Made by a program: the position numbers and the translations under genes
From: an uncultured Mycoplasmatota bacterium
Lineage (GTDB): Bacteria; Bacillota_I; Bacilli_A; RF39; UBA660
DNA length: 64,000 nucleotides
NCBI GenBank assembly: GCA_946497955.1
Contig: CAMMMH010000004.1
Location: forward strand, 12,314-76,313
Reading direction: 5' to 3'
Shown here: positions 4,241 to 23,548 of the stretch, piece by piece
Layout of the letters: each line of letters starts with the position of its first letter
Position numbering within the stretch: the stretch's first letter is position 1
The notes under the pieces: generated by a model
What the model was told of the DNA's origin: nothing
Databases searched by the model: none
What the model saw: the letters and a program-made list of their open reading frames with translations, nothing else

Positions 4241-5044
4241 TCAGTTAACAGTTTTCTTTTGTATAAATTTCTCAAGTAAACAAATAAGATAATAGAATAA
4301 GAAAGCTAAGACACCTAGAACAATAACAGAAGCAATGACAAGGTCTATATTAAATACTTGAGTACCATACATTATTAGATATCCAAGTCCTTTTTTTGAT
4401 ACAAGCAATTCCCCCATTATGACACCTATATAGCACATGCTCACATTAATCTTAAGATTATTAATAATATTAGATAGATTAGAAGGAATAACTGCCTTCA
4501 TAAATATCTGTATTTTACTAGCACCTAAACTTCTAAGTAAAGTAATATAGTTACTATCAGTTTCTTTAAAATTATGATAAACATTTATAATAGACAAGAA
4601 TAAAGAGATTAATAAAGCCATAAAGATAATAGAATTAGTACTAGCACCTACCCAAATAATAATTAAAGGTCCAAGTGCCACTTTAGGTAGAGAATTTAAA
4701 ACAGTTAAATAAGGATCAAGTATCTTCGCTAATCTCTTAGAAAACCAAAATAGAGTAGAGACTAACAAGGAAATAATTGTAACTACTAAAAAGCTAACTA
4801 CTGTCTCATATAAAGTAATACCTATATGTACTAATAAATCATTATCAGTGAATAGACTTCCTAAAGTTTTAAGTACTAGACTAGGACTAGATAAAAGAAA
4901 AGTATTAATAAGATTAAATCTTGCTAATAGTTCCCATCCTAAAATGAACACTAGTAATATTAATATTTGAAAACTAATAACAATAATTTTTTCTCTTTTT
5001 TTCTTTCTTAAAAATTCTTTATGTTCCATACTATAACTTGACAT
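4241..5044 (-). CDS. ABC transporter permease (NitT/TauT / SsuC-like family)
   Basis: About six hydrophobic segments and an EAA-like loop 'SLGASKIQIFMKAVIPS'. Its start overlaps the stop of the upstream ATPase fragment. Confidence 0.8.
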   Translation of the reverse strand: MSSYSMEHKEFLRKKKREKIIVISFQILILLVFILGWELLARFNLINTFLLSSPSLVLKTLGSLFTDNDLLVHIGITLYETVVSFLVVTIISLLVSTLFWFSKRLAKILDPYLTVLNSLPKVALGPLIIIWVGASTNSIIFMALLISLFLSIINVYHNFKETDSNYITLLRSLGASKIQIFMKAVIPSNLSNIINNLKINVSMCYIGVIMGELLVSKKGLGYLIMYGTQVFNIDLVIASVIVLGVLAFLFYYLICLLEKFIQKKTVN

Positions 5045-5366
5045 CTAAATCTCTCCATATCGCTTCATAATAGTAATTAAATTCTTTTTCTTTTCTATTA
5101 TTAAATGGAGTAGAACGATTTTTATAATTAATATCATAAATCTTTTTAACAACACAAGGCCTTTTGGTAAGTACTACAACTTTATCACCTACGCTCAAAG
5201 CTTCTGATAAATCGTGAGTTACCATAATAGCAGTTTTACCTAAGTCTTTAACCATTTTATAAACATCATCTGCAAGCATTACTCTAGTCATGGCATCGAG
5301 TGCAGAAAAAGGTTCATCTAAGAGTAATATATCAGGTTTAGTAGCAAGTGTCCTGATTAGAGCAAC
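5031..5366 (-). pseudogene. ABC transporter ATP-binding protein, C-terminal part (split by element 1)
   Basis: The minus-strand frame reads ...TVALIRTLATKPDILLLDEPFSALDAMTRVMLADD...VTHDLSEAL, covering Walker B, D-loop and H-loop. It lacks Walker A and the signature motif, which are found at 19124-19549. Confidence 0.9.
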
Positions 5367-5386
5367 TGTTTGAATATTGTTAAGAC
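5367..5386. repeat. left terminal inverted repeat / att arm of element 1
   Basis: TGTTTGAATATTGTTAAGAC is the imperfect reverse complement of 19111-19130. The outer 10 bp (TTGTTAAGAC / GTCTTAACAA) match perfectly. Confidence 0.8.
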
Positions 5387-6240
5387 ATAGTACTTTCTAA
5401 CTTTTTATTATCATCTATATATTGATAATTAAGATTATTATTTTTACTAATAACATTCTCTCCAAGTTTTTCTTCTATATCTTTTCTCGTATTACTAGCA
5501 ACTTCGCCACCTGCTTTAGCAATCTTCCTATTTTCACTTAATCCGTAAGGTTTATGCTTTTTAGCAAGCTCACGAGTTGTAATCTCACCTATATCTGCAA
5601 GTAATACTTCTATGTCACTCATATTATCTCTTAAAGATTCTTTTCTAAGACCTTTAAACTCCTTATATTCTTTAGCAGTCATACCAGACCATTCTCTATA
5701 AATATCATTAGTAAGAATGGCATATTCTAAATTACTGTCAACACCATTATCTTTCCATACTTCAGTAAGTTTCTTTCTATCCTGGATACCTTTAATTCTT
5801 TTAATAATCCAATCTTCATCATATCCTTTAGCTCTATAAGTATCAATTGCTCTTTGAAATGCAAGAGAAGGATCAAAAGTTTCATCAATTCTTTCACTAC
5901 CAAGTTTAGCAAGCCACCCTTTTATAGGCTCAGCATTTTTACTAGGTATTGATTCAATAATTCTAAACATCCCCTCAATATCAACAACATCAGTTAAACG
6001 ATATTTACCATCTTGAGCTTTTAATTTTAAAGCGTTACAATTAGTAACGGTTTCATTTCCTTCATCTTTAAGACGCTTTTTTAATACTCTCCAATAAGTT
6101 TGTGGATTAGTACTACCTGTCAAAACTCTAACTATATCAACTACACTAATATAGTATTTTTCTTTTTCATTATCCCAAACAGTTCTAATTGTTTCATTGT
6201 TAAATAACTTATTTACAATATGCATTTTATCTTGATTCAT
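5380..6240 (-). CDS. Bro-N domain / DinD-like (DNA-damage-inducible protein D family) protein
   Basis: 'IRTVWDNEKEKYYISVVDIVRVLTGSTNPQTYW...LKLKAQDGKYRLTDVVDIEGMFRIIESIPSKNAEPIKGWLAKLG' matches the Bro-N/DinD pattern. Start placed at ATG 6240 after a GGAAGGAA SD. Confidence 0.7.
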   Translation of the reverse strand: MNQDKMHIVNKLFNNETIRTVWDNEKEKYYISVVDIVRVLTGSTNPQTYWRVLKKRLKDEGNETVTNCNALKLKAQDGKYRLTDVVDIEGMFRIIESIPSKNAEPIKGWLAKLGSERIDETFDPSLAFQRAIDTYRAKGYDEDWIIKRIKGIQDRKKLTEVWKDNGVDSNLEYAILTNDIYREWSGMTAKEYKEFKGLRKESLRDNMSDIEVLLADIGEITTRELAKKHKPYGLSENRKIAKAGGEVASNTRKDIEEKLGENVISKNNNLNYQYIDDNKKLESTMS

Positions 6241-6613
6241 ATATAATTCCTTCCTTTTCTTTATAATCATACTAACAGCTTAAAACCAAATATTAATTCA
6301 ATAACCATAAATATATCTTTAATATCAACAACAGCAGTGTTACAATATTTACTGCCAGACGATTTAATTATAGTTGTCTAATAATACTAGACAACTCAAA
6401 AACTTTCTCTTTTTTATTAATTTACTTTCCCTCTTAAGTATCACTTCCTTTCCTCCAAAATATTACTTGTTTTAGTTAGAGAGAATTCTTGCAAAATTAC
6501 CAAACACTTTATATCTCCATTAAAAAATAAGATAATATAAAAAACGCGACATCTATCACGTTTAATTTTTACCATCTCTATTAATATAATATGCAGTTAA
6601 ACTATTTTTTTCT

Positions 6614-8173
6614 TCAAAAATTCCACTTTATTTTTATAATTCTAATATTATCTTTAACTTCACCTACATAAATTTTATCTATAAACTCATTAACAATAAC
6701 TCTATTAAGATTATCTAGCTTTTTATATTTAGTGATTATTTTATTATCAAAATCTTTGATATTCTCTTTATAAATGCTAATCTTTTTATTAACATTATCT
6801 AACTGTTTAGAATATCTACCCTTATTATCTTCATAACTACTTACTAAAGTCTTAAACATCTCTAGTGAAATAACACCATTTACTTTATCTTCATAAAGAT
6901 TCTTTAAATAGTTTTTAGACTCATCTATTTTTCTCTTAATACTAACTAACTCACTTTCTAAAGATATTAACTTTCCCTTATATATTTCATTATATTTTTT
7001 ATTTATCTTTTCTTTTAATAACTCTTCATCATAAAATTTATCTAATAGTTTATTAACTTCAAGAAGAACAATACTCACTAACTTATCATATCTAATTGAT
7101 GACTTATTAGAGCAGGTACTATTATTAGAACACACTAAATACTCATGCTTTGAAGAGTTTTTCTTTCTTAAATAATGCTCACATTCTAAACAAAAAACTT
7201 TACCAGAAAACAAATGAACAGTACTACTACCTCTAGGTTTAGTCCTATTTTTCATCTCCCTTTGTACTTTATTAAATGTATCCTCATCAATAATCGCTTC
7301 ATGAGTATTAGGATAACTTATCCATAAACACTTATCTTTATTAATAATTTTATGATTCTTATAACTAACAGTAGTTCTTTTACCCTGTACAAGCTTACCT
7401 AAATAAACTTCGTTTTTAAGTATCGTCTTAATAGCATTACTATTCCATTTAATATCTTCACGAGCTTTATTACTAACCACATTTAACTTTATACCTTGTC
7501 TATATTTATGAAGTGATGGACTTGGTATATTTTTATCATTTAAGTATTTGGCAATAGCAGAGTAGCCATAGCCTTTTAAATAAAGATTAAAGATATCTTT
7601 AACTACTAAACAAGCTCCTTTATCAACAACTAATTTATTATTATTAGAACTATCTACTAAATAACCAAAAGGAGCGAAAGGGGAGATAAACTCACCCTGT
7701 TTCATCTTAGAATTAAAAGCACTTCTAATATTATTAGAAACATCCTCTAAATACCATTCATTAACAAGACCATTAATCTGTCTAGACTTCTTATTACCAG
7801 GATTTTCTGTATCAGCATTATCAGATAAACTAATAAATCTAACATTCCACTCTTTAAACTTATTATTAATATATCTCTCTACAATCTCCATATCCCTTGA
7901 AAATCTAGATTGACTCTTACACAAAACAATATCAATCTTACCATTTTCACAGTCATTAATTAATCTTTCAAACTCTGGTCTATAAGTACCTGCTCCAGAT
8001 AAATCTTCATCACAGTACTCACCAACTAAATTATAACTAGGGTTATTATTAATAACCTCCATTAACATATGTCTTTGATTTTTAATAGATTCACTATCGT
8101 CTAATCTATTTAACTTATCTTTATCTTCAATAGAAAGCCTTAAATAAATAGCTACCTTAAAGACCTCTTTCAT
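6614..8173 (-). CDS. large serine recombinase (resolvase N-domain + recombinase domain + Zn-ribbon + coiled coil)
   Basis: 'VAIYLRLSIEDKD' contains the catalytic Ser. Also present are 'SRFSRD', the recombinase-domain motif 'APFGY', a Cys cluster 'CLECEHY...CSNNSTC' and a Lys/Glu-rich coiled-coil tail. Length 519 aa. Confidence 0.9.
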   Translation of the reverse strand: MKEVFKVAIYLRLSIEDKDKLNRLDDSESIKNQRHMLMEVINNNPSYNLVGEYCDEDLSGAGTYRPEFERLINDCENGKIDIVLCKSQSRFSRDMEIVERYINNKFKEWNVRFISLSDNADTENPGNKKSRQINGLVNEWYLEDVSNNIRSAFNSKMKQGEFISPFAPFGYLVDSSNNNKLVVDKGACLVVKDIFNLYLKGYGYSAIAKYLNDKNIPSPSLHKYRQGIKLNVVSNKAREDIKWNSNAIKTILKNEVYLGKLVQGKRTTVSYKNHKIINKDKCLWISYPNTHEAIIDEDTFNKVQREMKNRTKPRGSSTVHLFSGKVFCLECEHYLRKKNSSKHEYLVCSNNSTCSNKSSIRYDKLVSIVLLEVNKLLDKFYDEELLKEKINKKYNEIYKGKLISLESELVSIKRKIDESKNYLKNLYEDKVNGVISLEMFKTLVSSYEDNKGRYSKQLDNVNKKISIYKENIKDFDNKIITKYKKLDNLNRVIVNEFIDKIYVGEVKDNIRIIKIKWNF

Positions 8174-8289
8174 TCTAAACTCATCTCAAGAGTAGTAATA
8201 ATTCTATATAATTTATCATTAATTAATTTTCTTAACTCATTATCACTAATAGATTTATCATATTCACATGAAACATTATAAGAACACAT
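8170..8289 (-). CDS. 39-aa ORF translationally coupled to the recombinase (not in the ORF track)
   Basis: GAGGAG SD, then ATG at 8289. Product MCSYNVSCEYDKSISDNELRKLINDKLYRIITTLEMSLE. Its TGA overlaps the recombinase ATG as ATGA. Confidence 0.4.
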   Translation of the reverse strand: MCSYNVSCEYDKSISDNELRKLINDKLYRIITTLEMSLE

Positions 8290-8338
8290 AAAAAATCACT
8301 CCTCATTAATCTATATTAAAAAAAGAAGTGATTTATTA

Positions 8339-9160
8339 TTAAACAGAAACATGAATAAAACTATTCAAATAATTTAATACAATATCAATCGCTTCGTCTA
8401 CAGGTATTCCTAGCCAATTATTATTAGCTAGACTCAATATTCTCTTATAACCTGTATTATTTAAAATATTTGTTATTCTATTAATAATATCACTTATATT
8501 GTTTTCCTTCATATTCTTATCATTAAATATTAATAGTTCAAAACATTTAAGTAATTTGCTTTTATCAAGCATTGTATTTTTTATTAAATAACAGAAATCA
8601 AATATATCTTTATATCTCGTTGATCTTATTCCAAATTTTAATAAAGATTTCAATTTTTCTGTAAAGATCTGTTCTTTAGAATTAACAAGTAAACTTACTT
8701 CTTTATCAAGTATGGTTAAATCGAAAAACAACTCATCTTGTTCTATCTCCAAATACTTATTAACTCCTATATCTAATTTTGTGTTTATAATATTATTAAA
8801 TTTATCTTTAATTGATATATTTAATCTTTTACCATCATAGTCTTGATGCTGTAGTTTTTCTATATTTCCTATTATTTCAATAGTTATACCATCATTAACA
8901 GTATTTAATATATTAATAAATTTAACTATTGATGTATTATCTAATGAATATCTAATAAAATCTAAATCTAAATCTCTAGTTGCTCTACGAATATCTTTAG
9001 ATATATTATGTATTACAACTCCACCTTTAATAGTAATATTATTCTTAAAATTGCTCTTATAAATTTTATCTAATATAATATCTTGGCACACCTTAGAAGA
9101 CGCCTCTATTCTTTTATACCCTAATTTTACATATTTATCTGTTAAATCGTTTAAATTCAT
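8339..9160 (-). CDS. abiEii: AbiEii/AbiGii-family nucleotidyltransferase toxin (type IV TA / abortive infection)
   Basis: The N-terminal 'ITIKGGVVIH...RRATRDLDLDF' matches the DUF1814 NTase motifs (KGG...R.T.DLD.). It directly abuts the AbiEi-like gene with no gap. Confidence 0.75.
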   Translation of the reverse strand: MNLNDLTDKYVKLGYKRIEASSKVCQDIILDKIYKSNFKNNITIKGGVVIHNISKDIRRATRDLDLDFIRYSLDNTSIVKFINILNTVNDGITIEIIGNIEKLQHQDYDGKRLNISIKDKFNNIINTKLDIGVNKYLEIEQDELFFDLTILDKEVSLLVNSKEQIFTEKLKSLLKFGIRSTRYKDIFDFCYLIKNTMLDKSKLLKCFELLIFNDKNMKENNISDIINRITNILNNTGYKRILSLANNNWLGIPVDEAIDIVLNYLNSFIHVSV

Positions 9161-9742
9161 TTAAAATACCTCATCCATTAAAATTTTATAAAATTTTTCA
9201 CCCTCTTTAAAAACATTTAAATATTCTTCAATTAATGACATATCTAACTCATCAATAATCTTCCTATAATTTGTTATAATTTCTTTATATAAATCATATC
9301 CAATTTTATTTTTATAACGTACTAAGTCAATTAGTAATCTTTCTTTATTATATATTTTTATAGTTACTCCTTCGTATTCATATGAAGTTATTCCTAATAT
9401 ATATAATTCATCTTTCATTCTAATTTGTTTAATTTCATTATTATTAATATTAGTGGAATTCCTACTAGTACATAATGTAATCTTTTCTGGAATGACATCT
9501 GTAAATCCATAATAATAATAAGCTGATAGACCACTAACTACAGCATAAGGATACTTTTTCTCTATTATAGATAGATAATGAATATTTGGTTGTTCGGAAT
9601 ATATCCCACTTTCTATTTTATAAATAGATTTGTTTTTTAAAGCCTTTTTTAAATTATAGTCTGATTTAAATTTCTTTATTACCTCATTATAATTATATAA
9701 CACTCTTACCACCTGATATAATTTTAAAGTAAAAATCACCAT
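9161..9742 (-). CDS. abiEi: AbiEi-family antitoxin / transcriptional regulator
   Basis: 'YKIESGIYSE...YAVVSGLSAYYYYGFTDVIPEKITLC' resembles the AbiEi_4 pattern, and the gene is paired with AbiEii. An alternative start is GTG 9703, preceded by an AGGTGG SD. Confidence 0.65.
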   Translation of the reverse strand: MVIFTLKLYQVVRVLYNYNEVIKKFKSDYNLKKALKNKSIYKIESGIYSEQPNIHYLSIIEKKYPYAVVSGLSAYYYYGFTDVIPEKITLCTSRNSTNINNNEIKQIRMKDELYILGITSYEYEGVTIKIYNKERLLIDLVRYKNKIGYDLYKEIITNYRKIIDELDMSLIEEYLNVFKEGEKFYKILMDEVF

Positions 9743-9833
9743 TAGTCAATAGAAATGGTGGCTTTTACTTTAAAAATGTAACGAAGACTAACCAATATAA
9801 TAAAAGAAGTGATTTAGTACTTAAAAATAAATA

Positions 9834-10448
9834 TTAATTATTAAGAACTTTCATAATCTCATCATCACTAATAGGTCCATGTCTTTGAATATTTATATCA
9901 TCACTAGTAAGATCAACTATTGTACTAGCTTCTCCAAAAGAAACATCACCCATAACCATACCATCAAGAGTAGGGCATTCTTCTTCTATCTCATCTAAAC
10001 TTCTACATACATTCATTCCCGATTTATTAGCACTCGTTAAAAATAAAGGACTTCCAACTTTATCAATTAGTTCATTTAAGAATTCAGATGGAATCATCCT
10101 AATAGCAAGTTCATCTGTCTCTCTTGTACCAACATTATTAATATATGAAAATGCCTCAGGCCTTTTATTTAAGACTAAAGTAAGAGGTCCAGGCATAAAA
10201 GCTTTAATTAGCTTAAAAGCACGCTCATCAACAGCTGCTATACTTTTAATTTGTTCTAAATCTTTACAAAGAACAGGAAAAGACTTATTAGAAGGACGAT
10301 GTTTAACTTTTACAAGGTTTTGATAAGCCTTACTAGAATTAATCCTCGCACATATTCCATAAACAGTATCAGTAGGTATACTAATAACCCCATCATTTTT
10401 AAGAATAGTTGAAACTTCTTCTATTTCACTTTGTTTATATCGCTTCAT
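9834..10448 (-). CDS. L-threonylcarbamoyladenylate synthase family (TsaC/YrdC-domain-only) protein
   Basis: 'ISIPTDTVYGICA...K.RPSNKSFPVLC...PGPLTLVL...IRMIPSEF...GSPLFLTSANKSG' are YrdC/Sua5-domain hallmarks. At 204 aa there is no Sua5 C-terminal domain. Confidence 0.8.
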   Translation of the reverse strand: MKRYKQSEIEEVSTILKNDGVISIPTDTVYGICARINSSKAYQNLVKVKHRPSNKSFPVLCKDLEQIKSIAAVDERAFKLIKAFMPGPLTLVLNKRPEAFSYINNVGTRETDELAIRMIPSEFLNELIDKVGSPLFLTSANKSGMNVCRSLDEIEEECPTLDGMVMGDVSFGEASTIVDLTSDDINIQRHGPISDDEIMKVLNN

Positions 10449-10582
10449 AAATTCACCTCTGTTTAAAGATTTGTATCACTCTCTAATAAGACTTGCAAGC
10501 AATGTTGAAAGAAAAACACAGATATTGCATTTATCTATCTTGAATGATAATATAAAATTAATCTAGAAGAGAGTGTGTTGAT

Positions 10583-11326
10583 ATGTTAAAAAATATTGCA
10601 GGAACAACTATAAAAATAAAGTTCAAAGATGAAATGATAGAACTTCCAAAAAACGCAAAAAAACAAATTAATATTTTTTGGAAACAAAGTAAGGAAAGTA
10701 ATCCTAGTCTTTTTAATGGTGAACTAATTTGTGTAAGTGAATATAAGGAATCAAATGACTTAATAGAGATTACTTGTAAAAGAACATCTTATGCTCATCA
10801 TTTATATGATGAAAGAGTAGGACTACCTAAAGAATATGGGTGTCATAACTTAGTGGTAGGATGCCTATTAGAAACTAGTGATAATTATTATGTAATAGGG
10901 GAAATGACAAGTAATACTTCAGTTCCTAATTATCTACAAATACCAGGAGGTAATGTTGATAATACTGATATTAAAGAAGGTAGAGTAGATATATTAAATG
11001 CTCTAATAAGAGAATGTAGAGAAGAAGTAAATATTAATTTACAAGATAAAAATATGGTAGATAGTTTTGGAATAAAATATATAAGTCTACCAAATGAAAA
11101 ATCTAATGCTTACTTAATTATCGCTAAAGGTAATTTAAAAAAGACTAAAAATGAAATGCTTGAATACTACAAAGAATATTTAAAATACTTAAAAGATAAT
11201 AATTTAGAAGTAGAATTTTCTAACATACACTTTATAAATAAAAATAAAGCTCTAGAAGAATTAAATAACTTAAAAAATCCTAAAAGAAATTATTTAGAAG
11301 ATTTATTAGAAATAGATAGTAAATAA
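10583..11326 (+). CDS. NUDIX-family hydrolase (divergent Nudix box)
   Basis: 'IPGGNVDNTDIKEGRVDILNALIRECREEVNI' contains REUxEE (RECREE), with a longer-than-canonical spacer before it. Confidence 0.55.
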   Translation: MLKNIAGTTIKIKFKDEMIELPKNAKKQINIFWKQSKESNPSLFNGELICVSEYKESNDLIEITCKRTSYAHHLYDERVGLPKEYGCHNLVVGCLLETSDNYYVIGEMTSNTSVPNYLQIPGGNVDNTDIKEGRVDILNALIRECREEVNINLQDKNMVDSFGIKYISLPNEKSNAYLIIAKGNLKKTKNEMLEYYKEYLKYLKDNNLEVEFSNIHFINKNKALEELNNLKNPKRNYLEDLLEIDSK

Positions 11327-11339
11327 TAAAAAAAGATAG

Positions 11340-12662: not shown

Positions 12663-12728
12663 AATAACCTCCTTTAAATTTATATATACAATACCACAAA
12701 TATATTAGTTTTACAATATAAGTTTTTC

Positions 12729-12782
12729 TTGACGATTGAATACATATTCAACTATAATATAAATAGTTGAGTAAATATTCAA
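12729..12782 (+). promoter_or_regulatory. cad operon promoter with two ArsR/SmtB-type inverted-repeat operators
   Basis: -35 TTGACG (12729-34) and -10 TATAAT (12753-58). A perfect IR TTGAATA-CA-TATTCAA (12736-51) lies between them. A second IR TTGAGTA-AA-TATTCAA sits at 12767-82. Confidence 0.65.
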
Positions 12783-12816
12783 CCATAAACAAATAATATA
12801 AATAGGAAGTGATAAT

Positions 12817-13179: not shown

Positions 13180-13194
13180 AAAGAAGGAAAGAAT

Positions 13195-13419
13195 ATGAAA
13201 GATTATAAATTTAAAATAGAAGGATTAGACTGTGCTAACTGTGCTAACGAATTAGAAGAGTCACTAAGAAAGATTGACTTAATAGAAAATGTCTCTATTA
13301 GTTTTATGATGGAAAGACTTACTTTTAGTTGTAATGAAGATAACTTAAATAGTGCCTTAAAACAAATTAAAAAAACTATAAAAAGAGAAGAACCTGATGT
13401 TACAATTGAGGAGGTATAA
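13195..13419 (+). CDS. stand-alone heavy-metal-associated (HMA) domain protein
   Basis: 'GLDCANCANELE' CxxC ferredoxin-like fold motif. The ORF ends 2 nt before the ATPase ATG, which has its own GAGGAGG SD. Confidence 0.75.
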   Translation: MKDYKFKIEGLDCANCANELEESLRKIDLIENVSISFMMERLTFSCNEDNLNSALKQIKKTIKREEPDVTIEEV

Positions 13420-13421
13420 TT

Positions 13422-15275: not shown

Positions 15276-15277
15276 AT

Positions 15278-17458
15278 ATGAAGAAAATAGTTTTAAAAAT
15301 AGGGGGAATGACTTGTAGTGCCTGTTCATCAGGCCTTGAAAAATATTTAAACAAACAAGTTGGAATAACTAGTGCCACTGTTAATCTAGTCTTATCTATC
15401 GCTACTGTTTACTATGAAAATATAACAGTCAAAGATATCGAAAGATATATTAAAGAAGCAGGTTTTACCAGTCTAGGCGAATTTAAGGGAATAGAAGATA
15501 AAGTCACTAATGAAACTGATAAGATAAAATTAATTCTTTTAGGACTATTAATTATCTTTATGATGTATATATCTATAGGAAATATGTTAAACCTCCCAAG
15601 CATCCCTTATCTTAATCACAAATATCCTCTTGTTTTATCCACAACTCTGTTGATAATTACTTTCGTATATTTAATTTATGGACTAGATATTATAAAAAGT
15701 GGTATAAAGAATTTACTCCATAAGATGCCTAACATGGATACCCTTGTTATGTTTAGTGTCATCTTTAGCTTTCTCTATAGTCTTTATAGTTACATAAATA
15801 TCTTACAAGGAAATAACACTTTACTTCATAATTTATATTTTGAATCTACTTGTATGGTAATTTACTTTATTAAACTAGGTAGAGTATTAGAAGACTCTAG
15901 TAAAGATAAAACTAAAGATGCTATTAGAAAGTTAGTACAAATAACTCCTACTTATGCCACTATAAAAAAGAATGATAAAGAGTTAAAAGTAACTATCGAT
16001 GAAGTAGAAGTAGGAGATACATTAATTTGTAAAGCAGGAGAAAAAATAGCTGTTGATGGCACTGTTACTAAGGGTAAAACCTATGTTAATGAAAGTTTTA
16101 TCACAGGAGAAAGTGCCCCAGTTTTAAAAGAAAAAGGTTCAAATGTCATCGCTGGTTCTATTAGTTATGACGGACTTATTGAATATACTGCCAAGAAAAT
16201 AGGGAAAGACTCTACCATCTCAGAAATAGTAAAACTAGTAGTAGAATCTACTAATACCAAAACTAAAATACAACGTCTTGCCGACAAAGTAAGTGGCATC
16301 TTTGTTCCTGTTATTTTAATAATTGCCTTCTTAACATTTATAATCCAGATACTTATAGGTCTATCTTTAGAAGAATCACTAATTCATATGGTAACAGTCT
16401 TAGTAGTCGTTTGTCCTTGTGCCTTAGGACTTGCCGTACCCCTTGTTGTAGTTGTAAGTAATGGACTTTGTGCTAAGAAAGGCTTATTCTTAAGAAATAG
16501 TGAAGTCTTAGAGAAAGCTAAAGATATTGATACTATTGTCTTTGATAAAACAGGAACCCTTACCTATGGTAATTTAAAAGTCTTTAAAACTTATAATTAC
16601 TCTAACTATAAAGATAATGATTTAATTAATATTGTATCTAATATAGAAAATAACTCCTCTCATCCTATAAGCACAGCTTTTAAAGTTAAAAAGAAGTTAG
16701 TTGTAACTGATTTTAAAACTTTAGATGGTAAAGGGGTAAAAGCAAGTATTAATAACAAAGTTTATTATTTAGGAAATAATACTTTATTAAAAGATTTAAA
16801 AATAAAAGATAATCATAAAGAAGACTATAATAATTTAATAAATAATGGCTGTAGTATTATCTATGTAATAGAAGAAGGTATTGTTATTGGTCTAATAGGT
16901 GTAAAAGATATAGTTAGATCTAATATAAAAAATGTTATAACTGAGTTTAAAGATAATAATATAGAAGTAATTATGTTAACAGGAGATAATGAAGTAACTG
17001 CTGAGTCTATTGCAAAAGAGTTAGGTATAACTAAAGTAATATCTAATGTCTTACCAAAGAAAAAAGCCTCTGTTATTAAAGACTTAACTAACAAAGGTAA
17101 AAAAGTAATAATGGTAGGAGATGGTATTAATGATGCCCCTGCTTTAGTAAATGCCACTATTGGTATAAGTGTTAATGATGGGACAGATGTTGCTATGGAC
17201 TCTGCTGATGTCATCCTTATGAATAACGATATTTCTAATATTTTAGACCTTATTAAAATAAGTAAAAAAGCATATCTCATCATTAAAGAAAACTTATTCT
17301 GGGCTTTCTTCTATAATTTACTTATGATACCTATCGCTATTGGATTATTAGAAAACTATGGAATAAGCATGAGTCCTATGTTTGCAAGTATTGCTATGAC
17401 TATAAGTAGTTTAACTGTAGTTATAAACTCTTTAAGACTTAGTAAAATGAATTTGTAA
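15278..17458 (+). CDS. copA: P1B-1-type copper-translocating P-type ATPase
   Basis: N-terminal HMA 'GMTCSACSSGLE', 'VCPCALGLA', 'DKTGTLT', 'GDGINDAP', TM7 'FYN' and TM8 'AMTISS' (MxxSS), which are Cu(I) signatures. Confidence 0.85.
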   Translation: MKKIVLKIGGMTCSACSSGLEKYLNKQVGITSATVNLVLSIATVYYENITVKDIERYIKEAGFTSLGEFKGIEDKVTNETDKIKLILLGLLIIFMMYISIGNMLNLPSIPYLNHKYPLVLSTTLLIITFVYLIYGLDIIKSGIKNLLHKMPNMDTLVMFSVIFSFLYSLYSYINILQGNNTLLHNLYFESTCMVIYFIKLGRVLEDSSKDKTKDAIRKLVQITPTYATIKKNDKELKVTIDEVEVGDTLICKAGEKIAVDGTVTKGKTYVNESFITGESAPVLKEKGSNVIAGSISYDGLIEYTAKKIGKDSTISEIVKLVVESTNTKTKIQRLADKVSGIFVPVILIIAFLTFIIQILIGLSLEESLIHMVTVLVVVCPCALGLAVPLVVVVSNGLCAKKGLFLRNSEVLEKAKDIDTIVFDKTGTLTYGNLKVFKTYNYSNYKDNDLINIVSNIENNSSHPISTAFKVKKKLVVTDFKTLDGKGVKASINNKVYYLGNNTLLKDLKIKDNHKEDYNNLINNGCSIIYVIEEGIVIGLIGVKDIVRSNIKNVITEFKDNNIEVIMLTGDNEVTAESIAKELGITKVISNVLPKKKASVIKDLTNKGKKVIMVGDGINDAPALVNATIGISVNDGTDVAMDSADVILMNNDISNILDLIKISKKAYLIIKENLFWAFFYNLLMIPIAIGLLENYGISMSPMFASIAMTISSLTVVINSLRLSKMNL

Positions 17459-17531
17459 TTGACAAAATAACACATCATGTTGACACTCAATAATTCTTAT
17501 GATATGTTGATAAAAATGGAGATGTAAATCA

Positions 17532-18224
17532 ATGATAGAAAAAGTAAAATATCAAGTAAGTGAATTATTAAATAAAGATAAATCTGGCCACGGAATGGAT
17601 CATATAAATAGAGTTTTAGAGTTATCTTTGAGATTTGCTGAAAAAGAAAAAGCAAATAAAGATATTGTTTCTCTAATAGCATTACTTCATGATGCAGATG
17701 ATTATAAGCTATTTGGAATGGACAATGCTAGAAATTTAACTAATACTAAAAGAATTATGAATGATTGTAATATAGATAAAAACATACAAGACCAAGTATG
17801 TTGTGCTATTAAAAATATTGGATATAGAAAAAGACTAAAAGGTTACGCACCAACAACACTAGAAGGAAAAATAGTATCTGATGCTGATATGTGTGATGCA
17901 TTAGGTGCCCATGGTATTTTAAGAGATTATAAGTATGTTATGGAATATGGAAAACCATTTTTTGACAAGAAAATATTTCCAACTGAAGATACAAATAAAG
18001 ATAAATCTCTTGAGAAATGTTCTAATAGTTGTGTATGTCACATATTTGAGAAAATATTAAAACTTAAATATTTAATGTTAACAGAGTCAGGAAAAGAAGA
18101 AGCTAAATCAAGGCATCAAATTGTTGTAGAATTTTTATATCATTTTTTTGATGAAGAAAATGTTCCAGAATGGACAGAGTATTTAAATGAGTATTTGAAA
18201 AATATAAATTATATGTTAAACTAA
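17532..18224 (+). CDS. HD-domain phosphohydrolase
   Basis: 'GHGMDHINRV' and 'ALLHDADDYK' supply the H...HD metal ligands. Confidence 0.7.
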   Translation: MIEKVKYQVSELLNKDKSGHGMDHINRVLELSLRFAEKEKANKDIVSLIALLHDADDYKLFGMDNARNLTNTKRIMNDCNIDKNIQDQVCCAIKNIGYRKRLKGYAPTTLEGKIVSDADMCDALGAHGILRDYKYVMEYGKPFFDKKIFPTEDTNKDKSLEKCSNSCVCHIFEKILKLKYLMLTESGKEEAKSRHQIVVEFLYHFFDEENVPEWTEYLNEYLKNINYMLN

Positions 18225-18244
18225 TAGGCACAGGAGGTACATTT

Positions 18245-18466
18245 ATGGAAAAACTTACACAGGAAGAACTTAATATAATATTAGAAAATATTAATCATAA
18301 TATGGCAGAATATGATAAAGATATAAAAAGAAAAATGGAACACTCAGACAAAGTAGAATTAGATATGTATAAAGTAAATCCTGCATTTTTGAATCAAGGA
18401 AATACTGATACAGCTAGTAATACACATAGTAGAGTGAAAAGAATAAAACATAGAAGTAGATTTTAG
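18245..18466 (+). CDS. hypothetical protein (73 aa)
   Basis: ORF with a GGAGG SD. No recognisable motif. Confidence 0.35.
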   Translation: MEKLTQEELNIILENINHNMAEYDKDIKRKMEHSDKVELDMYKVNPAFLNQGNTDTASNTHSRVKRIKHRSRF

Positions 18467-18557
18467 TCTATTTCTTTTTTTGTTATGAGTAAAACAAAAC
18501 TGCTTGACATTAAGTTACTCCAGTGATACTGTTATATCAAATGAGGAGGTAACAAAT

Positions 18558-19076
18558 ATGAAAAGATTAAATTCATTCCTTTATACCAAAGGGAAATTTG
18601 GTAAAGGTTGTATAAGAAGTGTTGATACTAACAATGAATATTTATATTCTAAGGCAATGTATAAGACAAAAATAAAAAAAGAAGATCTTCCAGATGATTA
18701 TATTGAATTTAGGAGTGGCACTATACGATATATGACAGGATATTTAAAAACAAGTGGAGTTGTTGATATAGACTATACATATTTTTTAGAAAATCATATA
18801 TTTAAAGATGATTATTTATATATATCGTATAAAGGAAAACTAAAGAAAGAAAAAACGTCATATGGAAGAGAACGTATTGTTAATTATGATATCTGTATCT
18901 GTGATAATGATATTATACCTATTTTACATGCTATAGAAAAGAATTCTAATATTAATATAGATAAAGTTAAAGAAAAAATATATTATAAAGTATCTTGGTA
19001 TAAAGAAAATTGTAAAGATGAATATACAAGAGAATTTGGTAATAGAGATATAGATATATTTGAAGAATATAAATAA
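18558..19076 (+). CDS. hypothetical protein (172 aa)
   Basis: Start moved to ATG 18558 after a GAGGAGG SD. No recognisable motif. This is the last gene before the right end of element 1. Confidence 0.45.
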   Translation: MKRLNSFLYTKGKFGKGCIRSVDTNNEYLYSKAMYKTKIKKEDLPDDYIEFRSGTIRYMTGYLKTSGVVDIDYTYFLENHIFKDDYLYISYKGKLKKEKTSYGRERIVNYDICICDNDIIPILHAIEKNSNINIDKVKEKIYYKVSWYKENCKDEYTREFGNRDIDIFEEYK

Positions 19077-19107
19077 CTTAGTAATTAATTTTTACTAGGT
19101 TATTTTT
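19077..19107 (+). terminator. rho-independent terminator just inside the right att arm
   Basis: 8-bp stem CTTAGTAA / TTACTAGG (one G-U pair), 7-nt loop, followed by TTATTTTT. Confidence 0.55.
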
Positions 19108-19110
19108 CGT

Positions 19111-19130
19111 GTCTTAACAACACTCAACCA
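19111..19130. repeat. right terminal inverted repeat / att arm of element 1
   Basis: GTCTTAACAACACTCAACCA matches the reverse complement of 5367-5386 at 17/20 positions. Confidence 0.8.
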
Positions 19131-19549
19131 ACTCTTTGTCTCATACCACCAGATAAACTCCTAGGAAACTTATCAATAAACTCACTTAAACCATAAGTAT
19201 CAAGTAATTTTAAGACATAAGCTTTATCTTCCATACTTACTTTACCTTTTAATTTAAGACCCAATAGACAGTTATCTAAAATATTAAGCCAAGGAAATAA
19301 ACTATCTTTTTGAAGCATATAACCAAGCTTTATATCTTCCTTAGAAAACTTTATATCACCACTACTTTTTGTTTCTAAATTAGCAAGTATTGATAACAGT
19401 GTACTTTTACCACATCCACTTGGTCCTACAATTACAATAAACTCTCCCTCATTAACACTAAGATTGATATCTTTAATCGCTTCTATTTCACCACTTTTAT
19501 CTTGATAATTTTTAGATAAATGTGTAATTTCTAAAATATCATTTTTCAT
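19124..19549 (-). pseudogene. ABC transporter ATP-binding protein, N-terminal part (split by element 1)
   Basis: Walker A 'GPSGCGKST', a Q-loop and the signature 'LSGGMRQRV'. Two element-derived codons later (V-G) there is a stop. Walker B is missing and is found at 5031-5366. Confidence 0.9.
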
Positions 19550-20089
19550 ACATCAAGTCACTAAATGGAACTTTACTATCTAATTCTCCTGCATTAATCA
19601 TAATATCTTGTAAGTGGTCAAATTCTTCTTCACTAAACTCAGTTGTTTTAGACCATGCATCAATAGATCTATAACGCTCTACAATCTTTGTTAAATCATC
19701 AATTGATGTATCAGGGAATTGATCTATTATCGCTTCTGCTATCTTCTCATCAGAACTATTATGAACAAAGTCAATTCCCTTTTGAATCGCTTTCTCAAAG
19801 TTATCAATTAGTTCTTTGTTCTCATTTAAATAACTATCTCTTGCAAAGAAAGCAGTATAAGGAACAACACCACCAAGTTCACCTAAACTTGCAACAACAT
19901 AACCATAACCTTCTTTTTCTAACTCTAAAGCATTAGGTTCAAACAAAGCGACAAAGTCACCTGTCCCTCCAATAAAGGCACTACTCATAGCAGAGAAAGC
20001 TACAGAAGTATCAATATTAACATCCTTCTTAGGGTCAATTCCAGCATCGCTTAAAGCCCATTCAAGAGTCATTTCAGGCATACCACCTC
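19539..20089 (-). pseudogene. NMT1/ThiY/SsuA-like ABC substrate-binding protein, C-terminal part (split by element 2)
   Basis: The frame is open from the junction: (stop)GGMPEMTLEWALSDAGIDPKKDVNID.... There is no signal peptide or N-terminal lobe. The complementary N-terminal part is at 23084-23548. Confidence 0.85.
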
Positions 20090-20108
20090 ATCGGTAGTTA
20101 AACTTATA
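20090..20108. repeat. left terminal inverted repeat / att arm of element 2
   Basis: Contains GTTAAACTTATA (20097-20108), the reverse complement of 23085-23096. Confidence 0.8.
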
Positions 20109-20153
20109 ATACTTTTATTTATTAAAATACATAAAATTAATTAGGTGGTTAAA

Positions 20154-20255
20154 TTGAAAATTATAAATATATTTAATGAAAATGGTAAGACATTACAACA
20201 AATAATAGAAGAGTTTTTAATAGACTATTATATGGAAAGTGAATATGAAAAGTAA
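20154..20255 (+). CDS. 33-aa ORF overlapping the recombinase start (not in the ORF track)
   Basis: AGGTGG SD, then TTG at 20154. Product MKIINIFNENGKTLQQIIEEFLIDYYMESEYEK. Its stop at 20253-55 lies inside the first codons of the recombinase ORF. Confidence 0.35.
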   Translation: MKIINIFNENGKTLQQIIEEFLIDYYMESEYEK

Positions 20256-21807
20256 AACATTTAATGTCGCTTTTTATATTAGATTATCTCGTGAAGATGG
20301 TGACAACTTAGAAAGTGAAAGTATCATAAATCAAAGAGATTTATTACATATATTTTTAGAGAAAACAGAAGAAAAATTAGTTTATATAGATGAATATGTT
20401 GATGATGGTTTTACTGGTTCTAATTTTGATAGACCTTCTTGGAAAAGATTAATTAAAGATTTAGAAAATAATAAAGTTAATACTATTATAACTAAAGATT
20501 TATCTCGTATGGGTAGAGATTATATCTCTATGGGGGAATATATTGAAAGAATATTCCCTGAGAAAGGTATAAGATATATTGCCATAAACGATGATATTGA
20601 TACTCTCCATGAAACACCAGGATTAGAGTTTTTACAATTTAAATTAATGTTTAATGATTACTATTTAAAAGATACATCTAAAAAGATTAGAAAAGTTTTG
20701 AGATCCAAAAAGGAAAGAGGAGAGTTTCTAGGTTTTAAAGCCCCTTATGGTTATCTAAAAGACAAGAGTGATAAACATAAACTAATAGTCGATGAAAACG
20801 TTAGACCAATTATTAAAAAAATGTTTCTTTTAGCATATACCGGTAAAAGCCCAAAACAAATAGCAGATATCTTCTCAAAAGAACATATTCCTACACCTAG
20901 TGTTTATGCTAATCTAAATCGTGGTATAAATAATCCTACTTATAATATATGGTGCCCTAGGACTATTGAAGAAATGCTTACTAACGAAACATACATTGGT
21001 AATATGACTCAAGGAAGAAGAAAAAAGTTAAATTATAAGTCTAAAAAAGAAATTAGAACACCGAAAGAACAATGGATAATAAAAGAAAATACTCATGAAG
21101 CGATTATTGATAAAAAGGTATTTGATACAGTAGGAGAATTACTTAAGAAAAACAAAAATAAACCTACCGGCAATAATATTATGTTACTTTCTGGTTTTAT
21201 GAAATGTAGAGAGTGTAATCATAAAATAGGAATAAATAAAAGTAGTGATGGTAAAAGATACTACACACATTGTTCTTATTATACAGCCCATTCTAAATAT
21301 GGTTTATGTACTCCTCATAGCCTTAATTATAAAAAACTAGAAAATCTCGTTTTAGAGGAGATTAGAAAACTGTGTAAAGAGTATGTAGATAGTACTACTT
21401 TTAAAGAAAGGATAGAAGAAGCTAGAAAGAAAAATGATATTAAGGTTAAAAAACAAGTAGAAATTAATATATTAGAAAAAAAGATTAGGACTAACAATGG
21501 TTATATAGACAAAGTATATGAAGATAAGTTAAATGGTAATATCGATATAGAGATGTTTAATCGTCTAACTATTAAATATAAAGATGAAATAATCTCTTGG
21601 AAAAAAAGAATAGAATCTATTGAAAAGGAAATTTCCACTCTTGATAAAGTAGATACTGATAAAGAAAGAAAAGATATACTTGAAAAAGTAAATGAATATC
21701 TAGCCTTAGAAAAACCAACTAGAGCCTTACTAGTAAACTTAATTGATAAGATACTTATAAGTGAAGATAAAACAATAGAAATTCACTATAAATTCAAACT
21801 ATATTAA
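20245..21807 (+). CDS. large serine recombinase
   Basis: 'VAFYIRLSREDGD' contains the catalytic Ser. Also present are 'SRMGRD', 'APYGY', a Zn-ribbon-like 'CRECNH...CSYYTAHSKYGLC' and a coiled-coil tail. It is homologous to, but clearly divergent from, the 6614-8173 recombinase. GTG 20239 is an alternative start. Confidence 0.9.
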   Translation: MKSKTFNVAFYIRLSREDGDNLESESIINQRDLLHIFLEKTEEKLVYIDEYVDDGFTGSNFDRPSWKRLIKDLENNKVNTIITKDLSRMGRDYISMGEYIERIFPEKGIRYIAINDDIDTLHETPGLEFLQFKLMFNDYYLKDTSKKIRKVLRSKKERGEFLGFKAPYGYLKDKSDKHKLIVDENVRPIIKKMFLLAYTGKSPKQIADIFSKEHIPTPSVYANLNRGINNPTYNIWCPRTIEEMLTNETYIGNMTQGRRKKLNYKSKKEIRTPKEQWIIKENTHEAIIDKKVFDTVGELLKKNKNKPTGNNIMLLSGFMKCRECNHKIGINKSSDGKRYYTHCSYYTAHSKYGLCTPHSLNYKKLENLVLEEIRKLCKEYVDSTTFKERIEEARKKNDIKVKKQVEINILEKKIRTNNGYIDKVYEDKLNGNIDIEMFNRLTIKYKDEIISWKKRIESIEKEISTLDKVDTDKERKDILEKVNEYLALEKPTRALLVNLIDKILISEDKTIEIHYKFKLY

Positions 21808-21861
21808 TGAAAAATATAGGTAAATATGGTAAAATATTAACAAGAGAGAAGGTGGTATCTT

Positions 21862-23049
21862 ATGAAATGTATTTTAATGAATAAAAATACTGAAGTGTTA
21901 GTATGTGAGTATAATACTAATTTAAATGTATTTGATAAAATGTATGAGATTATTAATATTGATTATGCACCATTAATATTAAAAAAATACTATGAGGAAG
22001 ATAAAGATACATTAGCATTATTAAGAAGATTAACTGAATGGTTTAAAGGAAGAGGTATCCCATCGTGGAGAGATAAAATAGATTTACTATTACATCGTCT
22101 TAACATTGAAACTGCTGAGGAATTATTAGATAAAGCTTTTGGTTTATCTTTATCAGATCAATACTGGATAAAACCTTATGATAGTAATTTGAAGTATGAT
22201 GATATTAACTTTTTTGATAATGATTTTGATTATGCTGAATTTTTAGAAGCTTCACTTTCACTTAATAGTAAGATAGTAAAAAAAGAAACTTCTCTTAAAA
22301 CACCTAATAATACTACTGATGGTATGTTAAAAAAAGCATGGATTATTGAAAATGGTACGAGATATTTATTAAAAGGTGGTTATAAAAACGAAATATTACA
22401 ACCATTTAATGAGGTTTTAGCATCTATGATATGTGATAGATTAGGTTTTAATCATGTCCCTTATACCTTAGATGTATATAAAGATACCGTAGTATCTAAA
22501 TGTCCTTGTTTTATAACTAAAGATACCGAACTTATTACCGCTTATCAAATAAAAAACAATATGAAAAGATATGATAGTGAAGAAGATTACGAAGAATATA
22601 TTAAATGCCTTGAAGAAAATGGTATTCCTAATGTTAGGGAAAAAATAGAAAATATGTATATCTTAGATTTTCTTATAATGAATGAAGATAGACACTTAAA
22701 TAATTTTGGTATTATAAGAGATGTTAATACTCTAAAATGGTTAGATGTCGCTCCTATATTTGATAATGGTATGGCTTTAAATGTTCAAAGTTATGATGAT
22801 GAAGAATTAATCATATCAGGTATGGGTAGATTATTTTATGAGATTAAGCCCTTTGATGAAATAATCAAAGTAGTTCATAATATTAAAAGAATAGATGTAT
22901 CAAAACTATCAGATATACCAGAAGAATTTGATAAACTATTACATAAGTATCAAAGTATTACCAAAATGTCTGATAAAAGAATATATAGATTATGTGTTCT
23001 TTTAAATAGACAAATAAATAAACTAAAGAAAATAATTGAGGAAGCCTAA
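21862..23049 (+). CDS. HipA-like serine/threonine kinase domain protein
   Basis: 'LDFLIMNEDRHLNNFGII' is the HipA catalytic-loop type (D.H..N.). 'APIFDNGMAL' is the second conserved segment. No HipB-like HTH gene is adjacent. Confidence 0.65.
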   Translation: MKCILMNKNTEVLVCEYNTNLNVFDKMYEIINIDYAPLILKKYYEEDKDTLALLRRLTEWFKGRGIPSWRDKIDLLLHRLNIETAEELLDKAFGLSLSDQYWIKPYDSNLKYDDINFFDNDFDYAEFLEASLSLNSKIVKKETSLKTPNNTTDGMLKKAWIIENGTRYLLKGGYKNEILQPFNEVLASMICDRLGFNHVPYTLDVYKDTVVSKCPCFITKDTELITAYQIKNNMKRYDSEEDYEEYIKCLEENGIPNVREKIENMYILDFLIMNEDRHLNNFGIIRDVNTLKWLDVAPIFDNGMALNVQSYDDEELIISGMGRLFYEIKPFDEIIKVVHNIKRIDVSKLSDIPEEFDKLLHKYQSITKMSDKRIYRLCVLLNRQINKLKKIIEEA

Positions 23050-23083
23050 GATTAGGTTTCCTTTAATATCAAGGGAAAATACG

Positions 23084-23548
23084 TTATAAGTTTAACAGGA
23101 GATGTCCCGCTCTACCACCAATAATGGTCTTACCAACTAAATCATCAAGTGTAAAATCTTTAATATCTTCACGTGCTACAATAAATGAACCATCTTTCTG
23201 AGTTAATCTTGCAAAAGTCTTAAGATAATCTTTTTCACCACCATTATATACATAAATAGTCGCTTCACTTCCTGCAAAACCAACATCAGCATCTCCTGCA
23301 AGTACCGCTGCACTTACTTTATCCGCCCCATTTGCAAGACTAAGTTCAATATCAATTCCCACATCTTCAAAATAACCTTCTTCAATCGCTACATACATAG
23401 GTGCATAGAAAATAGAGTGTGCTACTTCAGCAAGTCTTACAGTCTCTAAATCCTTACTATCATCCTTCTTATTAAAGTTAAATAATACAGCACAAGCTCC
23501 TAAAAATATAACTAAAATAACACCAATATAAATAATTGTCTTTTTCAA
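23084..23548 (-). pseudogene. NMT1/ThiY/SsuA-like ABC substrate-binding protein, N-terminal part (split by element 2)
   Basis: The signal/lipoprotein-like N-terminus 'VILVIFLGACAV' is followed by 'RLAEVAHSIFYAPMYVAIEEGYF'. After ...TIIGGRAG it runs 6 element-derived codons (HLLLNL) to a stop. Confidence 0.85.
23085..23104. repeat. right terminal inverted repeat / att arm of element 2
   Basis: Contains TATAAGTTTAAC (23085-23096), the reverse complement of 20097-20108. Confidence 0.8.

Follow-up and report, generated by a model that had tools for sequence, protein, structure and literature searches.

An uptake operon of uncultured gut Bacilli interrupted in frame by recombinase-bearing cargo islands, with signs of continued selection on the split genes

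Is a nutrient importer whose genes are split by recombinase-bearing elements dead, or can the cells that carry it still rebuild it? The question is raised by a 64,000-nucleotide stretch of DNA (hereafter the window; positions 12,314 to 76,313 of contig CAMMMH010000004.1, assembly GCA_946497955.1) with a G+C content of ~27% from Candidatus Onthousia (by exact protein matches, Ca. O. excrementipullorum or a near relative), a lineage of uncultured gut Bacilli known from chicken-gut metagenome-assembled genomes (MAGs), in which a related closed long-read genome measures 1.52 Mb. The minus strand of the window carries an operon for an ATP-binding cassette (ABC) importer of the NMT1/SsuA type that runs from binding protein through ATPase to permease, and its first two genes are split, the ATPase gene by an element here named E1 and the binding-protein gene by an element named E2 (Table 1). 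Our preferred reading, held with moderate confidence, is that these elements, together with a third (E3) in the permease gene of related genomes, are excisable gene-intervening cargo islands from three families of large serine recombinases (LSRs), each with its own site in one importer gene, and that they amount to a reversible knock-out; the operon would be reversibly inactivated and not dead, because selection keeps acting on the reconstituted genes.

Both genes are broken without loss of frame. Specifically, the open reading frame (ORF) of the ATPase N-part (19124-19549) ends ...LSGGMRQRV-G-stop, two codons inside E1, and the frame is picked up again at 5366->5031 as ...ALIRTLATKPDILLLDEPFSALD, the continuation reading ALIRTLATKPDILLLDEPF...; the ORF of the binding-protein N-part (23084-23548) ends ...TIIGGRAG+HLLLNL-stop, six codons inside E2, and resumes at 20087->19539. 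In a sister lineage (L014-L019 and L037; L numbers designate the loci compared) the syntenic operon is unbroken, with products of 331, 249 and 267 aa, and it aligns to the window as three colinear blocks (23604-23106, 20087-19129 and 5372-4224) that overlap at the junctions by 2 bp and 10 bp. Over their whole length, the rebuilt ATPase (250 aa) and the rebuilt binding protein (329 aa) match intact orthologues at 97% and 96% identity, respectively, and deleting one exact unit of either element from the sequence thus restores a colinear gene. An earlier sequence-only reading of this stretch had proposed an operon broken twice in frame by recombinase elements; the junctions and the colinear intact sister operons agree with it, and the rebuilt proteins pass the comparison with intact orthologues that it had suggested, being colinear over their full length. 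Its deletion of 13,766 bp for E1 (5367-19132) was right, being equivalent to 5365-19130, while its deletion for E2 (20090-23106, 3,017 bp) keeps the frame but falls 3 bp short of the exact unit and leaves an extra Gly codon (...GGRAGGGMPEM). Across the E2 site, 120/120 of the closest intact binding-protein homologues read IIGGRAGGMPEM, so that the core of E2 is GG and the unit is 20086-23105. The view that each insert has its own serine recombinase, homologous to the other and clearly divergent from it, also stands (LSR1 and LSR2 are 35% identical), as does that of two independent site-specific elements with unrelated attachment (att) sites, which lie 955 bp apart. As to the substrate, NCBIfam places the importer in the SsuA/Sao/Tau/nitrate group, below cut-offs, and an Rfam scan of the whole window for a riboswitch or other RNA hint gave zero matches.

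The insertions are widespread in the genus. In a survey of one genome per species, comprising 29 Onthousia-like genomes and counting for each gene those informative for it, E1 was present in 25/29, E2 in 12/24 and E3 in 7/23. All contigs that encode exactly the window's permease (20/20) have E1 beside it, E1 and E2 occur together in another sample as well (L011), and the ATPase gene is still split by E1 on contigs with intact binding proteins. Assemblies made independently in different studies and with different assemblers, more than 50 in all, show the same junctions, and the closed 1.52-Mb long-read genome is one of them. Since the window comes from a MAG, an assembly or binning artefact in a chimeric contig had to be considered; because identical junctions recur in so many independent assemblies, a closed long-read chromosome among them, the insertions are neither chance nor artefact, and this explanation is effectively excluded. 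E3, which interrupts the permease gene after about residue 207 with a GG core, was seen at L027, L039, L059, L062, L065, L068, L075 and L079, and at L039 it occurs alone, with the ATPase gene intact. CALVQY01 and Ca. O. faecipullorum DVKQ01 probably carry all three elements, and no other LSR paralogue was found in any of ~80 loci. The image of two keys on the operon understates the genus-wide pattern of up to three elements. Odd junctions at L050, L056 and L073, where tblastn extended past residue 141 or started from residue 130, were rejected as spurious extensions, the att sequences there being standard. In most Onthousia genomes, annotation pipelines will report the importer as missing or as pseudogenised.

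The machinery of the three elements is that of large serine recombinases. LSR1, LSR2 and LSR3 match PF00239, PF07508 and PF13408, all above cut-off, and the nearest characterised recombinases to LSR1 and LSR2 are TndX (35% identity), TnpX and SprA. LSR1 is a TnpX-like LSR with a DUF4368 region (PF14287, 25.8 bits against a cut-off of 25; TnpX N-domain, 2mhc, E=2.8e-10); LSR2, itself 35% identical to TndX, has no DUF4368 match, and LSR3 (479 aa) is ~23% identical to LSR1 and LSR2. XisF is the best NCBIfam match of both LSR1 and LSR2, below cut-off, and CcrB and CcrC are sub-threshold. With attB taken from intact orthologues, the attP sites of E1, E2 and E3 are imperfect inverted half-sites around a 2-bp core: in E1 the arms GTCTTAACAATATTCAAACA and TGGTTGAGTGTTGTTAAGAC flank GT with 17/20 positions symmetric, in E2 the arms AAGTTTAACTACCGATGA and ACATCTCCTGTTAAACTT flank GG with 13/18 positions matching and have the motif AAACTTATAA in common, and in E3 15/20 positions match around GG. 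Domain and defence searches of E1 and E2 in the window found none of the structural, lysis or replication genes that a prophage would carry, and no relatives of LSR1 or LSR2 were found in IMG/VR.

The sites themselves are old, canonical intragenic attachment sites, because relatives of the recombinases in other genera use the same codons. Other gut Bacilli (L094-L098) have LSR2 relatives, 75%, 71% and 62% identical, at the homologous position, directly after GGRxG, in binding proteins only 50-59% identical to that of the window, and the arm motif is retained. One of them (71%; L096:1-8047 and L097) is the integrase of a prophage with a holin and a GH25 lysin, inserted at the homologous binding-protein codon, and another belongs to a 5.3-kb element beside intact ATPase and permease genes. 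Moreover, an LSR1 relative (57%; L102:7618-10520) splits an ATPase gene, whose product is 67% identical to that of the window, at exactly ...MRQRV/ALIR; this element, a minimal island of 2.8 kb, consists of a 47-codon ORF, the LSR and a Bro-N gene, with its recombinase module flipped relative to the host gene and with different attP arms (GTTGGTTTA...). This operon is the specialised target of at least two LSR families and probably of three. The earlier suggestion of a favoured landing pad is strongly borne out and extended in this sense, the sites being canonical attB of old LSR families and a third LSR element occupying the permease gene.

The operon might be a landing pad and nothing else, dispensable in the gut, at which selfish or beneficial cargo elements integrated because the sites were convenient and then remained; the importer would be dead in carriers and the fragments intact owing to recent insertion or to inflow of intact alleles by recombination. 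The canonical nature of the sites speaks for this alternative, the cargo (metal efflux, defence candidates, TsaC) could alone explain near-fixation, and after E1 has killed the operon more insertions would cost nothing. We nonetheless judge it unlikely, on account of the selection that the split genes record. Ratios of non-synonymous to synonymous substitution rates (dN/dS) were calculated by the Nei-Gojobori method (own NG86 code, in agreement with Biopython values) on gene pieces from all loci. When only E1-occupied lineages are compared, the median dN/dS of the ATPase N-half is 0.139 (387 pairs; median synonymous divergence, dS, 0.31, maximum 0.89) and that of the C-half is 0.054 (938 pairs), and because intact orthologues give matching values (0.170 and 0.054, respectively) there is no relaxed selection on the split ATPase. 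Internal stops number 0 in 39 N-halves, 56 C-halves, 36 permeases and 40 binding-protein C-parts, where the neutral expectation over neighbour-joining trees of the occupied alleles, with 2.3 and 2.8 synonymous substitutions per site, is ~53 (N) and ~47 (C). The recombinases are under constraint too, with a dN/dS of 0.18 for LSR1 (no stops in 35 copies, YLRLS motif intact in 35/35) and of 0.19 for LSR2 (YIRLS intact in 11/11 copies). LSR1 has diverged as much as the host genes have (median dS 0.22-0.25) and is linked to them, its pairwise dS tracking that of the adjacent permease (Spearman 0.82, against 0.71 for a control pair of adjacent host genes). All occupied lineages have identical host att arms, with synonymous differences in distant intact species. 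Intact alleles are rare (4/29 species) and occupied alleles are never seen intact, so that a steady supply of fresh alleles would be hard to sustain; nor does E3 depend on a dead operon, because L039 has E3 with an intact ATPase. From purifying selection together with the co-divergence of E1 we infer recurrent precise excision.

Conservation of both halves would likewise be seen if the split genes worked as fragments, as a two-piece ATPase or binding protein that needs no excision, and this we hold to be very improbable. The split ATPase C-part has no usable start codon ahead of Walker B, its sole ORF (86 aa) beginning past the D-loop, the N-part lacks Walker B and the H-switch, and the binding-protein C-part lacks a signal peptide. 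Moreover, the 25 codons from the junction to the first Met of the ATPase C-part, untranslatable when the gene is split, are invariant in protein and form its most conserved part, which argues against function as fragments.

Germ-line gain and loss of the islands also occurs, for E3 and, less often, for E1. The empty-site locus L014 has an ATPase C-part nearly identical to those of the occupied loci L027-L032 (dS 0.014-0.07) and nests next to the L027 clade, where occupied clades differ from one another by a dS of ~0.3; the rebuilt permeases of two E3 carriers also exist elsewhere unbroken, with identical sequence, on 36 and 7 contigs. Such presence/absence polymorphism is indirect evidence that the recombinases integrate and excise the islands.

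If the islands are a reversible knock-out, they would have integrated at their canonical attB sites and would silence the importer in the majority state, the one that is assembled, while still being cut out precisely by their own recombinases often enough for selection to act on the reconstituted genes. Excision may proceed without a separate directionality factor, as it does for TnpX and TndX, or with the help of the small ORFs conserved upstream of the LSRs; the excised islands might then re-integrate, or be lost from a subpopulation. Selection would thereby maintain the recombinases and att arms along with the reconstituted genes, and in the strain of the window both E1 and E2 would have to leave for the importer to work. 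A narrower version, which we put forward only tentatively, is a non-developmental multi-lock switch, in which each importer gene would be gated by a different, vertically retained LSR island and the importer would be made once all of them have been excised; the arrangement would be old and shared across genera, with host genes, att sites and recombinases all kept by selection, and the islands would afterwards return to their sites or stay in place in the remaining cells. The conditional switch envisaged in the sequence-only reading draws indirect support from selection on split genes, recombinases and att arms and from co-divergence, but the junctions that it predicts were not seen: the collections searched held no attB or attP junction from an E1- or E2-occupied lineage.

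Several observations weigh against a reversible knock-out, and the lack of any excised form, together with frequent recombination, is what the landing-pad alternative would lead one to expect. Exact look-up of the rebuilt proteins of occupied alleles (six ATPases and three binding proteins) found none of them in a collection of 15 billion proteins. The attP1 pattern had 0 matches in JGI metagenome contigs and IMG/VR, a negative that carries little weight because that searchable collection holds only three attR-bearing contigs, as counted by a P-arm control; the circle junction, sought through the neighbours of the Bro-N gene, yielded only one extra contig, with the element integrated. Because neither a rebuilt protein nor an attP junction turned up, we infer the excision of E1 and E2 from the patterns described above. 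Furthermore, no replication function is apparent in E1 or E2, so that an excised circle would be lost unless it re-integrates. Rampant homologous recombination at the locus blurs the co-divergence argument: L011 is identical to the window in the binding-protein C-part and the ATPase N-part and differs by 10% in its binding-protein N-part, L020 is mosaic in the opposite way, and the breakpoints lie at or near the elements (23106-23548 vs 19539-20085). Constraint on synonymous sites of the att arms is only suggestive, synonymous diversity being low over ~20 codons around the junction without making it a unique outlier (rank 3/104 and 14/132). Lastly, a single split ATPase N-half, additional to the 39, is frameshifted by an 11-nt insertion after residue 86 (L080:3065-3498, on a contig binned as 'Muribaculaceae', probably by mis-binning), and LSR1 is frameshifted in two long-read assemblies (L001 and L002), possibly through sequencing error.

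Excision might instead be programmed as in the skin, SPbeta and gin elements, and take place only in a terminally differentiated cell, with the germ line keeping the islands and the soma expressing the importer. Near-fixation, vertical co-divergence, purifying selection on the halves and the absence of intact alleles from assemblies are precisely the pattern expected in that case, and non-phage LSR intervening elements are known (gin; PMC5595907). Weak hints come from a YjcZ-like ORF and a CotD-like Cys/His-rich ORF in the window and from a SigK/E-like sigma factor on E1. Each of these matches is below curated thresholds, so the statement that the genome encodes spore proteins is not supported: the CotD-like and YjcZ-like matches are no proof of sporulation. 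The proposed link to skin-type elements rested on those two sub-threshold matches, and the targets here are the binding protein, ATPase and permease of a nutrient importer, none of them a sporulation gene. The genome is only ~1.5 Mb, the organism is uncultured, and the literature on the taxonomic placement or sporulation of Onthousia gave nothing usable. Germ-line gain and loss of E3 and, less often, of E1, and the occurrence of an ordinary prophage among the E2 relatives, speak against programmed excision as well, and we consider it improbable.

To our knowledge, work on gene-intervening recombinase elements has dealt almost entirely with sporulation or heterocyst genes, or with the prophage switches of a few pathogens. 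Those of sporulation comprise skin (sigK, SpoIVCA), SPbeta (spsM, SprA/SprB), gin (gerE, GirC/GirX), vfbin and yin (yabG). Like skin, SPbeta and gin, the elements described here lie inside a coding sequence, carry an LSR, would restore the ORF by excision at a short core and have a small ORF nearby, which in those systems is the accessory factor; they are retained in the lineage, the split gene is under selection, and SprA is among the closest solved relatives. The targets of skin, SPbeta and gin are genes of the sporulating mother cell, and excision goes with terminal differentiation, whereas the Onthousia islands interrupt an uptake ABC operon, number up to three on its three genes and use the same sites across genera. 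A small, non-viral gene-intervening LSR element is exemplified by gin (PMC5595907), and GirX and SprB act as directionality factors (PMC5595907, PMC5499854). The nif, fdxN and hupL elements of heterocysts (XisA, XisC, XisF) are comparable in that independent elements in one functional operon must all leave, as where several of them interrupt the nif genes of Calothrix NIES-4101 (PMC11249958), and XisF is itself an LSR, like LSR1 and LSR2; they differ in belonging to another phylum, in being excised in terminally differentiated heterocysts and in that many use tyrosine recombinases.

In active lysogeny, reversible excision turns a gene on in vegetative cells. The Listeria comK prophage and the S. 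aureus phiSa3int in hlb inactivate a non-developmental gene, as the Onthousia islands do, and a relative of E2 is a true prophage at the same binding-protein site (L096); unlike them, E1 and E2 of the window are not prophages, and for them excision and re-integration are hypothetical. Tn4451/Tn4453 (TnpX) and Tn5397 (TndX) belong to the same LSR subfamily, as indicated by ~35% identity to TndX and by the DUF4368 tail of LSR1, and Tn4451 resembles the islands in being a small cargo island and in having a relaxase, TnpZ, to which the Mob/Pre relaxase of a 34-kb E1 variant is similar. Tn4451-type elements, which carry antibiotic resistance, have many insertion sites that resemble one another only loosely, in contrast with E1 and E2, which use one fixed intragenic site across genera and mostly lack mobilisation genes. 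TnpX and TndX integrate and excise without an accessory factor (PMC2475636). The staphylococcal cassette chromosome (SCCmec) at rlmH (orfX), with its Ccr recombinases, offers a further parallel in LSR cargo islands with a conserved gene as attB, variable cargo and composite arrays; SCC sits at the 3' end of rlmH and does not inactivate it, unlike the present insertions, which disrupt catalytic cores. The kind of element is established. Different here are an ordinary uptake operon as the target, a small-genome, abundant and uncultured gut Bacilli host, three recombinase families, one per operon gene, sites kept across genera, and a quantitative signal of continued use. If excision is confirmed, programmable gene interruption by mobile islands would also be a part of everyday physiology among gut microbes, the operon would be a case of natural AND-gated recombinase logic, and three new orthogonal LSR/att pairs, possibly with directionality factors, would become available for genome engineering.

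Table 1. Features of the interrupted operon, its elements and other parts of the window (positions in the window unless a locus is named)
Feature	Position	Strand	Remark
Permease gene, BPD_transp_1, 267 aa	4241-5044	-	unbroken in window
ATPase C-terminal part, residues ~140-250 (Walker B, D-loop, H-switch)	5031-5364	-	
E1 attR: host B' arm, core GT (5365-5366, inside shared AGTTG), element P arm GTCTTAACAATATTCAAACA	5345-5386	-	
E1, LSR-mobilised cargo island in ATPase gene, 13,766 bp	5365-19130		
Bro-N/DinD-like protein, kept at attR end of E1	5380-6270	-	DinD match weak
LSR1, 519 aa: Resolvase, Recombinase, Zn ribbon, DUF4368 tail, catalytic YLRLS	6614-8173	-	
39-codon ORF overlapping LSR1 start (ATGA)	8170-8289	-	kept in all E1 variants
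Conserved hairpin, then U-tract; 3' arm holds Shine-Dalgarno of 39-codon ORF	8290-8335	-	
AbiEii/AbiEi toxin-antitoxin (abortive infection) pair, variable cargo	8339-9742	-	
TsaC/Sua5-type L-threonylcarbamoyladenylate synthase, E1 conserved core	9834-10448	-	
Sigma-70 family factor, 440 aa, SigK/SigE-like, variable cargo	11340-12662	-	158 bits vs cut-off 252
ArsR-family regulator, HMA metallochaperone, two heavy-metal P-type ATPases	12817-17458	+	cargo kept in other E1 lineages
E1 attL: host B arm ...GAGACAAAGA, core GT (19131-19132), element P' arm TGGTTGAGTGTTGTTAAGAC	19111-19152	-	
ATPase N-terminal part (Walker A, Q-loop, LSGG signature)	19133-19549	-	
Binding-protein C-terminal part, NMT1/SsuA-type	19539-20085	-	
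E2, minimal LSR island in binding-protein gene, 3,020 bp	20086-23105		GG core 20086-20087 (attR), 23106-23107 (attL)
36-codon ORF overlapping LSR2 start	20145-20255	+	kept in E2 copies
LSR2: Resolvase, Recombinase, Zn ribbon, YIRLS motif	20239-21807	+	antisense to operon
HipA_C-like kinase, 395 aa, sole cargo of E2	21862-23049	+	HipA_C below cut-off
Binding-protein N-terminal part, lipoprotein-like signal, TTG start	23106-23548	-	
Promoter-like site TAGCCA-16-TATAAT, upstream of operon	23576-23603	-	consensus match only
CotD-like Cys/His-rich ORF	37700-38041	+	E=0.06 vs PF11122, below threshold
YjcZ-like ORF, 26 aa	43632-43712	+	20.2 bits vs cut-off 21.35
E1 empty site attB1: ...GGTATGAGACAAAGAGTTGCTCTAATCAGGACAC...			
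Predicted E1 circle junction attP1: ...TGTCTTAACAATATTCAAACAGTTGGTTGAGTGTTGTTAAGACA...			
E2 empty site attB2: ...GGTGGTAGAGCGGGTGGTATGCCTGAAATG...			
Predicted E2 circle junction attP2: ...AAGTTTAACTACCGATGAGGACATCTCCTGTTAAACTT...			
E3, third LSR element, in permease gene, ~7.1-7.4 kb	L027:3997-11388		after ~residue 207, GG core

The islands share a conserved plan and vary in cargo, which is predicted to consist of metal efflux functions and phage-defence candidates. Most genomes have an E1 of 8.5-9.7 kb, against 13.8 kb in the window and ~34 kb in OZ006970.1, and its conserved core comprises the metal genes (dN/dS of the P-type ATPase cargo ~0.09), TsaC/Sua5, the 39-codon ORF translationally coupled to LSR1, and the Bro-N/DinD-like gene, which matches the phage-defence candidate PDC-S13 (E=4e-114). 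TsaC/Sua5 (TIGR00057, 160.8 bits against a cut-off of 123.2) is present in E1 of L001-L009 and L020-L026; if the 1.5-Mb genome has no other copy of this enzyme of the t6A (L-threonylcarbamoyladenosine) tRNA modification, the cell could not do without E1, and the near-fixation of E1 would be easier to explain. The window's copy has in addition AbiEi/AbiEii, a NUDIX-like gene, an HD-domain gene and the SigK/E-like sigma factor. The first 215 residues of this factor resemble the sporulation factors SigK and SigE and are followed by a long C-terminal extension, and at L004, L005 and L009 the same region forms two separate genes of 247 and 150 aa. Insertion sequences (IS1595, Y1/IS200-like and IS110) lie inside E1 at L001:1371-4855, L023:19945-20993 and L043:14921-16123. 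The 34-kb variant of OZ006970.1 encodes a Mob_Pre relaxase (PF01076) and a DnaB-like ATPase, and it alone has such a relaxase, domain searches having found none in E1 or E2 of the window. The islands, E1 in particular, are thus stripped relatives of the Tn4451-type integrative mobilisable elements and not phages.

Upstream of LSR1, the hairpin that precedes the 39-codon ORF (free energy -15.7 kcal/mol, z -3.9) is identical in sequence in diverged E1 variants (L020, L022 and L027), and since hairpin and U-tract bury the ribosome-binding site of this ORF, recombinase expression is suggested to be normally low. The 39-codon ORF is a candidate directionality or regulatory factor, a role that is a guess, and a Pfam search of the small ORFs upstream of the LSRs returned no family. 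E2 elsewhere is 3.0 or 4.6 kb long, and its HipA_C-like kinase, with a dN/dS of 0.19, matches the phage-defence candidate PDC-M03A (E=8e-19). Besides LSR3 and the small ORF upstream of it, E3 holds a DitA-like defence gene and genes for one DapB_N/DUF5680 and one HTH_36 protein.

Two other loci of the window stand apart from the operon. At 38140-39423 (plus strand), a SocA/Panacea-domain antitoxin with a helix-turn-helix/MqsA-like N-terminus is preceded by a 106-aa ORF, and the two probably form a toxin-antitoxin pair unrelated to the islands. At 26499-28706 (plus strand), a HerA/DUF87-type ATPase of 735 aa, with a long low-complexity tail rich in N, T and P, adjoins ftsY/ylxM in all Onthousia contigs.

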